Part shown: positions 32,045 through 46,686 of the stretch, in pieces
How the letters are laid out: the number at the start of each line of letters is the position of its first letter
How positions within the stretch are numbered: the first letter of the stretch is position 1
Assembly: GCA_963847655.1 (NCBI GenBank)
Contig: CAWKAS010000002.1
Span: 705,729-769,728, forward strand
Origin: an uncultured Acidobacteriota bacterium
Lineage (GTDB): Bacteria > Acidobacteriota > Vicinamibacteria > Fen-336
Direction of reading: 5' to 3'
Length of the DNA stretch: 64,000 nucleotides
Notes under the pieces: model-generated
What the model saw: the letters and a program-made list of their open reading frames with translations, nothing else
What the model was told of the DNA's origin: nothing
The model's database searches: none
Translations under genes and position numbers: made by a program

Positions 32045-33043
32045 ATGAGCCAACCCGAGACGCAGGGCGGCCCCCAGGGCCGCCCACCCAAGCTCCTCGA
32101 TCGTGCGCGAGCCACGCTCCGCGCACGCGACTACAGCCCCGCCACCGAGAAGAGCTACCTGGGCTGGATCCGACGCTTCCTCGCCTTCCACCGGTTCCGT
32201 CGTCCCGAAGAGATGGGAGCCCCCGAGATCACCGAGTTTGTGTCCTATCTCGCCACCGAGCGCGAGGTCGGCGCCTCCACCCAGAACCAGGCCCTGGCGG
32301 GTCTGCTGTTCCTCTATCGCGACGTCCTGGAACTCGAGGTCGCCGGACTCGACGGCGTGGTTCGTGCCAAGCGCCCCCAGCACCTGCCGCTGGTCCTCAC
32401 GCGGGACGAGGTCAACACCGTCCTGGCCCGGATGGAGGGCGTGCCCCGCCTGATGGCCAGCCTCCTGTACGCGTCCGGCCTGAGGGTGACCGAGTGCGCC
32501 TGCCTCCGCGTCAAGGACCTGGACTTCGCCCGCGGCGAGGTCGTCGTTCGGAACGGGAAGGGCTCCAGGGACCGCGTGACCGTCCTTCCCCGAGGCCTGA
32601 TGGAGCCCCTCCACCAACACCTCGGACGCATCCGGAGACAACACCAGACCGACCTCGCCAACGGGGCCGGCAGCGTGGGCTTGCCCTACGCCCTCGCTGA
32701 GAAGTACCCCAACGCCCACCGCGAGTGGCCCTGGCAGTGGTTCTTCCCGGCCAGGAGCGTCAAGCGTGACCGCAAGACCGGCCGTTGGCAGCGCTCCCAC
32801 GTCCACGTCTCCGTGGTCCAACGGGAGTTCGCTTTCGCCGTCCGGGCCACCGGCCTGAGCAAGCCCGCCACCCCGCACACCCTGCGCCACTCCTTCGCCA
32901 CCCACCTCCTCGAGGACGGATACGACATCCGCACCATCCAGGAGCTCCTGGGACACCGTGACGTGGCCACCACGATGATCTACACTCACGTCCTGAACCG
33001 CGGCGGGCGCGGCGTGAGGAGCCCGTTCGATGTCAAGGCCTGA
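32045..33043 (+). CDS. intI: integron integrase IntI
   Basis: A tyrosine-recombinase fold carrying the IntI-specific additional domain (…ALAEKYPNAHREWPWQWFFPARSVKRDRKTGRWQRSHVH…), plus R…HxxR…Y (HTLRHSFATHLL…IYTH). A GGGGAGGA RBS is present. Confidence 0.9.
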   Translation: MSQPETQGGPQGRPPKLLDRARATLRARDYSPATEKSYLGWIRRFLAFHRFRRPEEMGAPEITEFVSYLATEREVGASTQNQALAGLLFLYRDVLELEVAGLDGVVRAKRPQHLPLVLTRDEVNTVLARMEGVPRLMASLLYASGLRVTECACLRVKDLDFARGEVVVRNGKGSRDRVTVLPRGLMEPLHQHLGRIRRQHQTDLANGAGSVGLPYALAEKYPNAHREWPWQWFFPARSVKRDRKTGRWQRSHVHVSVVQREFAFAVRATGLSKPATPHTLRHSFATHLLEDGYDIRTIQELLGHRDVATTMIYTHVLNRGGRGVRSPFDVKA

Positions 33044-33129
33044 AACCGATCCCAGGGAGCCCCACCCACGGCAAGGCCCCCTCCATGGGGGAGCGCCTGA
33101 ACGACTCGTCACCCCCTTTCCCACCGCGC

Positions 33130-33219
33130 TCCCCCGCCGTCCCGCGCTTATCCCAACTGCCGTTATCCTCTATCCCAACTGGGATAATCTTTAGTGCAGT
33201 TGCTCAATGCCTGTTCGGC
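33130..33219 (+). promoter_or_regulatory. attI candidate: direct repeats TTATCCCAACTG (33148-33159, 33170-33181) plus core GTTCGGC (33213-33219)
   Basis: It lies between the intI stop and the first cassette. The CAATGCCTGTTCGGCAGGCATG palindrome contains a GTTRRRY-like crossover site. Confidence 0.4.
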
Positions 33220-33270
33220 AGGCATGCTGGGCGCGGAAACGCAGAGACAGCGCGATCTGTTCTTTGTTCC

Positions 33271-33732
33271 ATGGTGACACCCCGTGCAGCCATCGCCGTC
33301 GCCGTCTTGCCGCTGCTGTCCTGCCTTGCCGCCTGCAGTGCTCGGCGACCGCTAGCCACGGAGGGCTGCCCACTGCCTGCCGCCTTGCGAACTGGCTTGA
33401 CGCAGCAGGAGGTGCTCAACACCTCTGGGTTCAACTCGCCCATCGCGTGGGGCCAAGTGAGGGTCAGCACAGGACCGGATCAGCACGGCGTGTTTGCGTT
33501 CAGCATGCAGGCGGGAAGTACAACACCTCTGCGCTCGCCTGATGTGGCTTGGTTGTACGGACTGGAACCCCGGACGCACCAGAGGCTCCTGCTGCTAGAG
33601 TTCAGTGATGGGCGGGTGGCACATATCCGTTGTGGGCGGCTCGTGCCTCCTGGCGAAGTCACGTGGGCACCGTGTGGTGTCGTCCGGAGGGCTGCCGAAC
33701 AAGAGGATGCACCAGACGAAGCGCTGAGTTGA
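33271..33732 (+). CDS. cassette 1: hypothetical lipoprotein
   Basis: MVTPRAAIAVAVLPLLSCLAACSA (lipobox). The C-terminus runs into attC1. Confidence 0.5.
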   Translation: MVTPRAAIAVAVLPLLSCLAACSARRPLATEGCPLPAALRTGLTQQEVLNTSGFNSPIAWGQVRVSTGPDQHGVFAFSMQAGSTTPLRSPDVAWLYGLEPRTHQRLLLLEFSDGRVAHIRCGRLVPPGEVTWAPCGVVRRAAEQEDAPDEALS

Positions 33733-33796
33733 AGATGCTCAAGGATCGCTCTCGCGTCATCAATGTGCGCTTCGCAGGTGATCCTCGCTGTTCGGC
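33694..33796 (+). repeat. attC site 1
   Basis: GCCGAAC…GATGCACCAG…TTGAAGATGC…CATCAATGTGCGC…GCAGGTGATC…GTTCGGC. Confidence 0.8.
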
Positions 33797-33839
33797 GGAC
33801 TTCGCAGCCATCTAGGGCCTCTCGTTTCTCCGGAGACAC

Positions 33840-34259
33840 GTGATGTTGGTTCAACTTCGACGTTGGCGTGAGATCCCCTGGACGGCAATGCTCATCGCGG
33901 TACTCCTGTGGTCATGCTCCACCGGGCCCCGGGATCAGGAGGCGTCCGAGTGCACGCCCTGGATAGTCCAAGCGAGCGACAACCCTCTTGAAGTCACCCT
34001 TCTAGGTGGGCACTGGCATTTCGAAGGGAATGCGCTTCTCGTCGGCTGCCGAGAGGTCCTGGATACCCTGACCCCCGGAGAGCGCGAGAGGGTCGCGGAG
34101 GCGATCGTGGAGTTCGTCGCGGAGCAGCACCTGTACGTTCTCAAGCGGGCCGAGCGAGAGTTCCGGCTGGCTGTGGTCGCTGCGATTAACGAGGCCGTAG
34201 GCCGTACGATCATCTCCGATGTGTGGATGCAGTTCTCCTTTTCGGAGACTGACTTGTAG
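33840..34259 (+). CDS. cassette 2: hypothetical secreted protein
   Basis: The 139-aa product has an N-terminal hydrophobic segment. Confidence 0.45.
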   Translation: MMLVQLRRWREIPWTAMLIAVLLWSCSTGPRDQEASECTPWIVQASDNPLEVTLLGGHWHFEGNALLVGCREVLDTLTPGERERVAEAIVEFVAEQHLYVLKRAEREFRLAVVAAINEAVGRTIISDVWMQFSFSETDL

Positions 34260-34271
34260 TGCCAATGCGCC

Positions 34272-34375
34272 GCCGAACAACGGGATGCACCAGTCGGGGC
34301 GCTGGGTGTGAAGATGCCCCACGACGACCTTAACTTCATCAATGTGCGCCCCGCAGGTGATCCCGACTGTTATGC
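34272..34375 (+). repeat. attC site 2
   Basis: GCCGAAC…GTTATGC; same family. Confidence 0.8.
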
Positions 34376-45053: not shown

Positions 45054-45090
45054 GGACCTCTGGTCGAAGAGCCGGGTGTAGAATCTGGGC

Positions 45091-45279
45091 ATGGCCACCG
45101 CCAAGGACACCGTCCGGGACCTCTTGGAGCAGATGCCCGACGACTGCTCCCTTGAGGACGTCCAGTACCAGCTCTACCTGCGCCAGAAGCTCGAAAGGAG
45201 CCGCTTGGCCGCAGCCGAGGGTCGAGTCGTTTCCCACGCCGAGGTCAAAGAGCGGCTGTCGAAGTGGGCCGGAAAGTAG
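45091..45279 (+). CDS. cassette 16: small antitoxin (ParD/RelB-like)
   Basis: 62 aa. It overlaps the start of the downstream toxin. Confidence 0.45.
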   Translation: MATAKDTVRDLLEQMPDDCSLEDVQYQLYLRQKLERSRLAAAEGRVVSHAEVKERLSKWAGK

Positions 45280-45605
45280 TCTGGACGGACCCAGCGGCAG
45301 AAGACGTCGTCGAGACGGTCGAGTTCATCGCGAAGGACTCGCCTTCCTTTGCAGCCACCTTGGCGCAGCGAATCTGCGACGCCGGAGACTCTCTGGAGGT
45401 GTTCAGCGAGCGGGGCCGGCCTTACCCTGATCCTGCATATCCTGGCTTTCGGGAGTTGCTGGTGGGCCCCTACCGCCTGGTGTACGAAGTGGAAGACGAA
45501 CGGGTCGTCATTCACGGGGTGTTCCATGGCAGTCGTCAGGTTGAACATGCCGTTCGGAAACGTGCCGCCCCGCGAGGTTCAAGGGGCCGCCGAACAAGGC
45601 GATGA
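45264..45605 (+). CDS. cassette 16: RelE/ParE-family toxin
   Basis: …ERGRPYPDPAYPGFRELLVGPYRLVYEVEDERVVIHGVFHGSR… (ParE-like). Confidence 0.6.
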   Translation: MGRKVVWTDPAAEDVVETVEFIAKDSPSFAATLAQRICDAGDSLEVFSERGRPYPDPAYPGFRELLVGPYRLVYEVEDERVVIHGVFHGSRQVEHAVRKRAAPRGSRGRRTRR

Positions 45606-45687
45606 ACCAGCCAAAGCGCGGAGGAAGATGTCCTAGATTGGTATGCTTCATTGAGTCGCGCTTTGGAGGTTATCGCCGCTGTTATGT
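45589..45687 (+). repeat. attC site 16 (divergent member)
   Basis: GCCGAAC…GTTATGT. Confidence 0.6.
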
Positions 45688-45728
45688 GGACCCTGGAGAG
45701 AGGGGTAGACTAGAGCCGGAGGCCGTCC

Positions 45729-45953
45729 ATGGACTGGCGAGAGCTCATCGTCGTTGACCCGGGCGTCTGCCACGGGCAGGCCTGCATCCGGGGCACCCGA
45801 GTCATGGCGTCCGTGGTCTTGGACAACCTCGCGGCGGGCCTTGATGTTGAAGGCCTCTTGAAGAGCTACCCGTCACTCACGAGAGAGGGGGTCCAGGCTG
45901 CGGTGGCCTATGCGGCGGACTTGGCTCGCGAGCGGGTGGTCGCGACCGCCTAG
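45729..45953 (+). CDS. cassette 17: DUF433-like protein (putative antitoxin)
   Basis: …[31 protein letters not shown]…. Confidence 0.5.
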
Positions 45954-45961
45954 CCCCTGGC

Positions 45962-46324
45962 ATGAGGTTCAAGGTCGACGAGAACCTCCCCAATGAGGTG
46001 GCGGAGGCTCTCCGGGCGGCAGGTCATGACGCGCCCACGGTTCTGGACCAGGGGGCCGGGGGCATGCTGGATTCCGATCTCGCCGCGCTGGTGAAGCGGG
46101 AGCAACGTGCCCTGCTGACCTTCGACCAGGGCTTCGGTGACATCCGCTCCCATCCGCCGGGGGAATACTCTGGCCTCGTGGTGCTTCGCCTCAAGCGGCA
46201 AGACAAGGTCCATCTGCTTTCGGTGATGCCGAAGCTCATCGCGACCCTCGCCTCAGAGCCGCTCGAGGGTCGGGTCTGGATCGTCGAGGAATCACGCATA
46301 CGGATTCGGGGTGAGGAACGGTAG
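45962..46324 (+). CDS. cassette 17: DUF5615/PIN-like (Mut7-C-type) putative toxin
   Basis: MRFKVDENLPNEVAEALRAAGHDA… is the partner of DUF433. Confidence 0.5.
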   Translation: MRFKVDENLPNEVAEALRAAGHDAPTVLDQGAGGMLDSDLAALVKREQRALLTFDQGFGDIRSHPPGEYSGLVVLRLKRQDKVHLLSVMPKLIATLASEPLEGRVWIVEESRIRIRGEER

Positions 46325-46686
46325 CGGGGATCCGCGAGCCACATAACAAACAGCAGTTCTTCCTAACAAACAGAAGTTCTTCCTGAGTCGCCCTCCGAGT
46401 AGGCGCTGCCGCTGAGCGGGCGTGTGGCGATTCTGGAAGAGCTGAGTTGAACCGAGGCCGCGGTGCTGAACCTATGTACTCTGGATCGGGCCGTGTTGCG
46501 TGTGGGAACAGCGGGGTCGGGAGCCGAACGACGTGTGTGGGACGCGAGGAAGCTCGCCAGGGGGCAAAGCGCGGTGATGTCTGAGACCGACTTCACGGCG
46601 CGAGAGGACCGAGAACGAACCTCCCCCTGAGGCGGCGACGCCGTTTCGGGCATCGAAAGGCCGGGGCGGAGAGGGGCGAGTCGCCG

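Follow-up and report, generated by a model that had tools for sequence, protein, structure and literature searches.

Integrase and cassettes on one strand: a very probably sedentary chromosomal integron of the inverted integrase type

Introduction

When an integron integrase gene (intI) lies upstream of its cassettes and reads in the same direction as they do, is the arrangement an established integron architecture, the accident of a flipped gene, or a sign that the repeats do not belong to an integron at all? The question is raised by a 64,000-nucleotide stretch of contig CAWKAS010000002.1 (assembly GCA_963847655.1; the whole stretch is referred to here as the window), where intI at 32045-33043 on the + strand is followed on the same strand by attI and an array of 17 cassettes separated by attC sites. 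A first-pass annotation, made from the sequence alone, had described the locus as a chromosomal integron of a rare layout. The analysis presented here indicates that it is very probably a sedentary chromosomal integron of the 'inverted integrase' type, with a host most probably from the Vicinamibacteria. The layout itself is uncommon but already documented, and the locus is a solid new example of it, not a new kind of system.

The integrase and the attC sites

The intI gene is an uninterrupted open reading frame (ORF) of 332 codons with no frameshift, and its intact 332-amino-acid product, IntI, scores 417.9 bits with the NCBIfam model TIGR02249 (cut-off 265) while falling far under the cut-offs of the XerC, XerD and XerA models. 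In a comparison with solved structures, VchIntIA (2a3v) aligned contiguously over IntI residues 21-328 (E = 7e-75), and the alignment covered the IntI-specific stretch LPYALAEKYPNAHREWPWQWFFP (residues ~205-255). XerA and XerD, in contrast, aligned with IntI in two blocks only and skipped residues ~195-252. The residues R147, K172, H278, R281, H304 and Y313 are invariant across 27 aligned relatives. The window also holds a negative control, the tyrosine recombinase of an insertion sequence (IS; 41825-42673, − strand), which shares 31% identity with IntI, lacks precisely the IntI-specific segment when aligned with it and reaches 181 bits with TIGR02249. A + strand intI with an integron-specific domain had been claimed in the first-pass annotation, and both the TIGR02249 score and the VchIntIA alignment bear this out; the insertion sought by the model and alignment checks is present, unlike in XerA and XerD. 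Judged by its sequence, the window recombinase is a complete integron integrase. Its GC content at third codon positions (GC3) is 0.89, which is host-like (host genes ~0.95), the cassette ORFs having values of ~0.7.

Downstream of intI, 16 direct repeats lie on the + strand between 33694 and 45687. They measure 103-104 nucleotides from left core to right core (99 in the last one), with cores that are GCCGAAC/GTTCGGC or near variants in which AAC and GTT are invariant, and a mean column identity of 84%. The 16 sites of ~103 bp, their cores and the very homogeneous family reported earlier are all recovered, and the family is lineage-associated. Each copy folds as an imperfect hairpin on either strand (−16 to −30 kcal/mol, DNA parameters), the central part being where the folding is imperfect. 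The consensus hairpin has 28 pairs, ten of them with compensatory changes (0 of 500 shuffles), and 97.1% of the hairpin cells are paired, compared with 90.3% in column shuffles, none of 500 reaching the observed value; sliding the partner columns lowers the figure to 25-49%. From left to right the geometry consists of the left core, a 5-nt spacer, an 8-nt L'' (GAT-G-CACC), a 7-nt L' (GGTGATC), a 6-nt spacer and the right core. L'' contains one extra base, and another bulge follows after 7 nt; attC-aadA7 has the same 16/23 spacing (PMC5027507).

It is the 5'-AAC-3' arm of the + strand that has the extra bases. Since the extra bases of attC are found on the AAC-bearing arm of the top strand (Nivina 2016; PMC5027507), the + strand is the top strand and the − strand the recombined bottom strand, and both the direction of the cassette ORFs and the position of attI agree with this polarity. 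The opposite assignment, with + as the recombined strand and G as its extra base, was rejected, as the extra bases are on the AAC arm (PMC5027507). A strict home-made geometry detector found 11 of the 16 sites on + and none on − inside the array, and gave the expected opposite layout in a class 1 integron used as a control (L037). A detector match at 58921-59017 (−), in a VWA-domain gene, is a probable false positive at which the family covariance model has no match. That covariance model, built from this array and thus informative only on the recurrence of the family in relatives, matched all 16 sites on +. In L001, L164 and L165 it also matched the family past intI and on the same strand as that gene (66-110 bits), and further matches came from L166 and L167 (80-110 bits across L001 and L164-L167). 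The folding check on R''/L''/L'/R' and the extrahelical bases thus fixed the orientation, and the repeats are predicted attC-type hairpins with + as their top strand.

The extrahelical bases depart from those of canonical attC sites. In all 16 sites the first, the strand-selecting one, is G on the top strand and hence C on the strand that recombines (alignment column 16, e.g. 33709), and the distal one is T in six sites, A in seven and G in three. Bouvier et al. found the first extrahelical base to be 'almost exclusively' G, a change from G to C costing only ~2.7-fold in their assay, and the second base in canonical attC is a conserved T (PMC2727003). C predominates likewise, with a distal base that also varies, in other inverted arrays (L001, L002, L005 and L011). 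It is also present in three arrays of canonical layout (L034, L048 and L060) and is therefore not exclusive to the inverted layout. attC sites with C at this position throughout a clade provide a test of the generality of the 'conserved G' rule.

attI and cassette exchange

The attI core GTTCGGC is located at 33213-33219. The intI stop codon ends at 33043, leaving 169 nt between the two, in keeping with the ~170 bp given earlier for the start of the array. The core sits in a small palindrome (ATGCCTG-TTCGG-CAGGCAT, 33207-33225, +), the left half typical of attC is absent, and the crossover G|TT falls at 33213/33214. Six related platforms can be aligned through the intI-attI spacer as far as an invariant CTGTTC and are unrelated beyond ~10 further bases, and the attI core is complementary to the left core of attC 1; together these features identify attI as the cassette insertion point. 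The distance from the intI stop codon to attI is conserved among related platforms, and no IS lies between intI and attI. A chimeric assembly at 33043-33213 is unlikely, as the junction recurs in five independent assemblies. Two direct repeats TATCCCAACTG in the attI region (33149-33159 and 33171-33181, +) are candidate accessory IntI-binding sites, a function that we infer, and TATCC-type motifs occur at the same place in the attI regions of relatives. Only one site between intI and attI resembles a terminator, the TATCCCA/TGGGATA repeat, which forms a weak hairpin of 6 bp.

Cassette exchange at attI can be followed in the platforms L163 and L164, which encode identical IntI proteins. The two are ~99.5% identical up to attI and ~29% identical afterwards, the similarity (L163 5554-6007 against L164 3359-3640) ending ~10 bases past the attI GTT. 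The difference shows what appears to be a natural replacement of the first cassette at the attI of a co-oriented integron.

A second trace of recombination is kept in the cores of the array. Exchange at G|TT passes the four variable bases of the right core on to the next cassette. Counted from attI, 16 of 17 cassettes have a left core that complements the right core one site earlier, and perfect complementarity between the two cores of one site occurs in just 2 of 16 sites. The shifted match was reached by none of 100,000 permutations, and points to exchange within the cores, cassette by cassette. The sole exception is attC 10 (39153-39159), with CGTGAAC as left core and GTTCGAC as the preceding right core; the mismatch could be due to a mutation or to a non-standard recombination event.

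Mapping of repeats and ORFs yielded the 17 + strand cassettes and 16 attC sites of the first-pass annotation. Of the span 32045-46330 that it gave, the start stands and the end does not, because the left core of cassette 17 at 46341-46347 extends the recognisable integron to 46347. A cassette consists of one small ORF or a toxin-antitoxin pair followed by attC, and in nearly all 17 the best-supported ORF is on + and ends just before attC. The 16 complete cassettes are 504-819 bp long, except cassette 12, whose 3014 bp are explained by an IS inside it. Cassettes 6 and 9, both of 597 bp and both with a DoxX-family ORF, share a 300-nt stretch that is 97% identical, which indicates a probable recent cassette duplication within the array. 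The 17 visible cassettes end where a truncated IS copy cuts the array; large sedentary arrays often hold >20.

Host, inheritance and layout

The genes upstream of intI encode VitK2_biosynth, an ABC transporter pair, Dus, Pkinase (Ser/Thr), Aldedh and PseudoU_synth. Their order, followed by intI (+) and cassettes (+), is kept wholly or partly in five independent assemblies, and the platform relatives have IntI identities of 76% (L001), 85% (L162), 80% (L163/L164), 69% (L165) and 83% (a JGI contig). An additional ORF precedes intI in L163 and L164, and no Aldedh was called in L165. In the window, the integron is flanked by ordinary chromosomal genes that share the codon usage of the host. Since the same neighbouring genes recur in five assemblies, the platform is taken to be sedentary and vertically inherited; the synteny check, with neighbours and layout kept at 69-85% IntI identity, thereby upholds the sedentary chromosomal integron proposed at the outset. 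The flanking ABC-F protein has its best named relatives in Vicinamibacteria/Acidobacteria (73-75% identity), as does IntI, and the closest genome-borne IntIs are from Acidobacteriota metagenome-assembled genomes (MAGs; best ~60% among the matches listed). The host is most probably a high-GC member of the Acidobacteriota, class Vicinamibacteria. Placing the array relative to replication by GC skew was tried and rejected, the signal being dominated by cassette and IS genes.

That intI lies upstream of its array and is co-oriented with it is confirmed: intI shares its strand with the cassette ORFs and with the top strands of the attC sites, and attI lies downstream of it. The claim that this layout is rare and confined to a few lineages was overstated. 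Since 2007, IntI proteins have been divided into three classical groups, of which the inverted integron-integrase group is one (PMC3575428), with Treponema as its type (PMC3607928); Cury et al. (2016) found the group to be paraphyletic (PMC4889954), and a 2026 study citing IntegronFinder 2.0 lists the inverted form as one of two known integron structures (PMC13323075). We examined 81 IntI-bearing loci, counting orientation as resolved at ≥3 attC matches on one side and strand. Twelve of the 17 IntI relatives resolved in this way were canonical and five were inverted (L001, L002, L005, L011 and L053), the latter from Acidobacteriota, Planctomycetia and a metagenome. The co-oriented layout was found in these five and in L164 and L165, and it recurs without the shared flanking genes in Acidobacteriota/Planctomycetia genomes at 57-61% IntI identity.

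In a neighbour-joining tree of IntI, which is indicative only and includes no classical inverted-group reference sequences, the window forms a group with L001, L002 and L005 (76% bootstrap), for which the bootstrap is 70% once L011 is added; L053 lies in another part of the tree, and the neighbours of the window group on all sides are canonical IntIs, IntI1 among them. The phylogenetic placement proposed earlier as a check thus puts the window among Acidobacteriota and Planctomycetia MAG integrases. As the clade is nested among IntIs of canonical layout, the tree suggests an origin of the inversion that may be separate from that of the classical Treponema/Chlorobi group. Such a placement fits the paraphyly of the inverted group, whose members (Treponema denticola; Boucher et al. 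2007; Cury et al. 2016) are chromosomal like the window integron. The classical members of the group come from Treponema, Chlorobi, Planctomycetes and Cyanobacteria. Among the matches listed, the window IntI is ~33% identical to a Spirochaetota protein (L065, IntI status unconfirmed) and 50-61% identical to IntIs of Proteobacteria and other phyla.

The closest described systems share some of these features and differ in others. For chromosomal integrons of Acidobacteria, the accessible part of Ghaly et al. (2021; PMC8352920) presents a taxon-specific attC covariance model; those integrons, like the window integron, are chromosomal and have a taxon-conserved attC family, and that part of the article makes no mention of a co-oriented layout. 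The Vibrio cholerae superintegron resembles the window in being sedentary and chromosomal, in its homogeneous attC sites of >100 nt (the V. cholerae repeats, VCRs) and in its cassettes, mostly of unknown function with some toxin-antitoxin systems. The Vibrio intI, however, is divergent from the array (the canonical layout, L056), whereas in the window intI is co-oriented with its 17 visible cassettes, and the VCRs have extrahelical G and T where the window attC sites have C and a variable base (PMC2727003). Class 1 integrons use a recombinase of the same family (50% identity to the L037 IntI) and attC sites of the same geometry, with 5/6-nt spacers and 8/7-nt L boxes. Their intI1 is divergent, they are mobile on Tn402-type transposons and they combine heterogeneous attC sites with resistance cassettes, none of which were recognised in the window, while the window integron is co-oriented and chromosomal.

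Proposed mechanism and alternative explanations

The combined results suggest a model in which cassettes would enter at attI through recombination of the double-stranded attI with the folded bottom (−) strand of an attC hairpin, with exchange at G|TT, to give promoterless + strand cassettes reading in the intI direction. The cassettes may then be transcribed by read-through from intI, and possibly from co-directional housekeeping genes upstream of it. Because attI is downstream of intI and two housekeeping genes upstream of intI are also on +, with gaps of only 7 and 88 nt, transcription can in principle run into the first cassettes. Alternatively, the AT-richer part of the intI-attI spacer (33145-33205) could hold an unrecognised promoter. 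The toxin-antitoxin cassettes of the distal part may help to stabilise the array, and the integrase is probably still active in this genome. An attC-specific IS91-family element, discussed below, would have invaded the array twice, the truncated second copy having removed everything past cassette 17.

Several observations weigh against this model. No sigma-70-like promoter was recognised in 31800-33900 by a scan that omits the promoter types of this phylum. The motif GTTC-N7-GTTC, which we take to be a possible LexA-type box, gave 27 matches where 39.7 were expected, with no good site before intI. Rfam matched no family in the window, the first extrahelical base of the recombined strand is C in all sites and the second is not a conserved T, and the two IS insertions together with the truncated distal end are signs of erosion. 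As a rival explanation, the integron could be real but a frozen fossil, in which cassette gain and loss have stopped and IS elements are wearing the array down. The insertion of two IS91-family elements into attC sites, a lost far end and the failure to recognise either a promoter or an SOS box would all be expected of a fossil, and the HicA, DUF4258, MazE/PIN, ParE and DUF433/DUF5615 cassettes could hold a passive array in place. Yet intI is free of frameshifts and encodes all six catalytic residues, the 97% identical stretch in cassettes 6 and 9 points to a recent event, 16 of the 17 core junctions remain perfect, and the different first cassettes behind identical IntI proteins in L163 and L164 suggest that the system works in this lineage. 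We consider the fossil explanation unlikely, although it is the likeliest of the rivals.

Far less credit can be given to the view that an ordinary divergent integron recently had its intI flipped, so that the co-orientation is accidental. The locus does contain IS elements able to drive rearrangement, and a sporadic class 1 case of this kind is known from Acinetobacter baumannii 1656-2 (Cury 2016; PMC4889954). A recent flip is nevertheless very hard to reconcile with an intI-attI-cassettes order that is kept together with the upstream genes in five independent assemblies at IntI identities down to 69%, that recurs in Acidobacteriota/Planctomycetia at 57-61% identity with IntIs that cluster at 70-76% bootstrap, and that has attI at a conserved distance past the intI stop codon with no IS in between. 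It is almost inconceivable that the locus is not an integron and consists of a XerC/D-like recombinase beside unrelated palindromic repeats, such as repetitive extragenic palindromic (REP)-like elements or terminators. Xer-type tyrosine recombinases are common, a second one is present in the window, and the lack of an Rfam family there would be in line with such a view. Against it, IntI passes the integron-specific model and is far under the cut-offs of the Xer models; the repeats combine AAC/GTT cores, an R box, an unpaired spacer, an L box with the canonical extra base and a second bulge at 7 nt; every repeat follows one small ORF or a toxin-antitoxin pair; and the shifted core complementarity arises only by exchange within the cores.

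A sedentary integron of the inverted type, as preferred here, provides a well-resolved co-oriented example in the Acidobacteriota, an abundant soil phylum, with the attI crossover mapped to the base and cassette turnover visible between near-identical platforms (L163/L164). It is also a candidate for testing cassette expression and integrase regulation where Pint and Pc cannot diverge, questions that have mostly been studied in canonical integrons.

IS91-family elements in attC sites

Two copies of an IS91-family element are inserted in the array, both on the − strand. Copy 1 (40352-42784, 2433 bp) contains the tyrosine recombinase gene (41825-42673) and an IS91 transposase gene (40688-41821), and copy 2 (46348-48257) is 83% identical to it and ends inside its recombinase gene. 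The transposase scores 383 bits with NF033538 (cut-off 125), Pfam recognises Y2_Tnp, Zn_Tnp_IS91 and Phage_integrase in the element, and the Xer-like recombinase gene lies upstream of the transposase gene. Both copies directly follow a left core ending in AAC on +, a position that is directly 5' to the R'' GTT when the bottom strand is read; when copy 1 is removed in silico, a 103-nt attC is restored that folds as a hairpin. Transposases with 63-82% identity occur on four independent metagenome contigs, L166 (element at 1412-3824), L167/L168 (504-2864 in L167), L169 (from 495) and L170 (from 7041). One fixed attC position is occupied in all six of six independent IS copies, always with the IS antisense to the cassettes, and the target belongs to the 103-nt family in L166 and L167 and to a ~70-nt type in L169 and L170. 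A scan of metagenomes with the IS transposase gave further relatives at ≤47% identity on short contigs, with 13 scattered attC detector matches in 280 kb, which we judge to be roughly the background level. The attC specificity therefore rests on the closer relatives (63-82%).

GTTC, GTTA or GTTG adjoins the IS end that lies downstream of the transposase gene, the other end, where present, is followed by GTTRRRY, and the terminus sequence reads GTTGAACCGAAGCCGCT(A/T)CGCGGCGGAAC. By the rule described for the IS91 family, insertion proceeds from a single-stranded circle, and oriIS lies next to a GTTC-like tetranucleotide (PMC13181058). The junction pattern fits this rule and appears to add a structural specificity for attC. 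With GTT at both junctions, the exact break within GTT is ambiguous, and the tyrosine recombinase of the element may have a role in insertion. The recombinase-side terminus GTTGAAC is a perfect GTTRRRY on the bottom strand (42778-42784; ~1412-1418 in L166 and ~504-510 in L167), and the interrupted attC would therefore be regenerated. It still scores as a full site with the family model (101.9 bits in the window, 92-102 across copies), and a cassette and its IS might be mobilisable together by IntI.

IS1111-attC elements and group IIC-attC introns likewise use one fixed attC position, and the group IIC-attC introns are, like the window IS, antisense to the cassettes (PMC7923331). In contrast to both, the window IS has an HUH/Y2 rolling-circle transposase of the IS91 type with a companion tyrosine recombinase, and it enters the bottom strand directly 5' to the R'' GTT. 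We found no description of an attC-specific IS91 group in a literature search that was incomplete. If the specificity is true, an IS91-family element with a tyrosine recombinase and a fixed attC position would represent a third class of attC-targeting mobile element and a natural example of a rolling-circle transposase whose chosen target is a folded site in single-stranded DNA. The element and the non-G extrahelical base may in the end matter more than the integron layout. As a tentative proposal, whose chance of being right in all its parts we put slightly short of even, the observations could be joined into a separately arisen Acidobacteriota/Planctomycetia clade of co-oriented integrons, with the C variant of attC and an undescribed, attC-specific IS91-family element of ~2.4 kb that is possibly cassette-borne.

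The IS-borne recombinase also has a bearing on searches for integrases. The IntI-like matches L066, L068-L072, L076, L078 and L079 are 30-38% identical to IntI, many of them are 40-48% identical to the IS-borne recombinase, and in L069 and L076 a gene for an IS91-type transposase follows. By these similarities, many of the weak 'IntI relatives' are IS91-associated recombinases and not integron integrases, and caution is warranted in surveys of intI by similarity alone, which pick up such genes.

Cassette contents and distal end

GC content drops from ~0.72 in the flanks to 0.60-0.65 in the array. All cassettes are on the + strand, and the proximal 11 are almost all without a family match. Cassette 1 (33214-33790) carries a putative lipoprotein ORF at 33271-33732 and its attC at 33694-33796. 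No family match was obtained for the single ORFs of cassettes 2 (33791-34369; ORF 33840-34259, attC 34272-34375), 3 (34370-35067; ORF 34397-34975, attC 34970-35073), 4 (35068-35755; ORF 35096-35647, attC 35658-35761) and 5 (35756-36309; ORF 35777-36205, attC 36212-36315). The DoxX-family ORF of cassette 6 (36310-36906) is at 36383-36778, with attC at 36809-36912, and the near-duplicate cassette 9 spans 38094-38690 with attC at 38593-38696. Between and after them, cassettes 7 (36907-37589; ORF 37014-37484, attC 37493-37595), 8 (37590-38093; ORF 37610-37990, attC 37997-38099) and 10 (38691-39250; ORF 38737-39192, attC 39153-39256) again have no family match, and cassette 11 (39251-39860; attC 39763-39866) has short ORFs only, also without a match. 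Pfam had no match for most cassette ORFs, and PADLOC returned 0 matches for ten cassette proteins of unknown function.

Cassettes of toxin-antitoxin type gather in the distal third of the array (39861-46347). Cassette 12 (39861-42874) has a HicA-toxin ORF at 40117-40329 and an upstream partner ORF at 39912-40223; its attC, split by IS copy 1, has the left core GCAGAAC at 40345-40351 and the rest at 42785-42880. A DUF4258 ORF (42914-43177) and a second ORF (43182-43451) make up cassette 13 (42875-43561; attC 43464-43567). After cassette 14 (43562-44228), whose ORF at 43587-44105 has no family match (attC 44131-44234), cassette 15 (44229-45047; attC 44951-45053) encodes a MazE/AbrB-type antitoxin (44300-44539) and a PIN toxin (44440-44934), and cassette 16 (45048-45681; attC 45589-45687) a ParE toxin (45264-45605) with a small upstream ORF. 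Cassette 17 (45682-46347) contains a DUF433 ORF (45729-45953) and a DUF5615/PIN-like ORF (45962-46324), and of its attC only the left core ACATAAC (46341-46347, +) is seen, the rest being interrupted by IS copy 2. In the 440 nt past that copy (from 48258) there is no recognisable attC, and a rearrangement seems to have removed the distal end of the array. A zinc-dependent alcohol dehydrogenase-like gene follows at 48695-49888 with a GC3 of 0.79, the typical host value being ~0.95.

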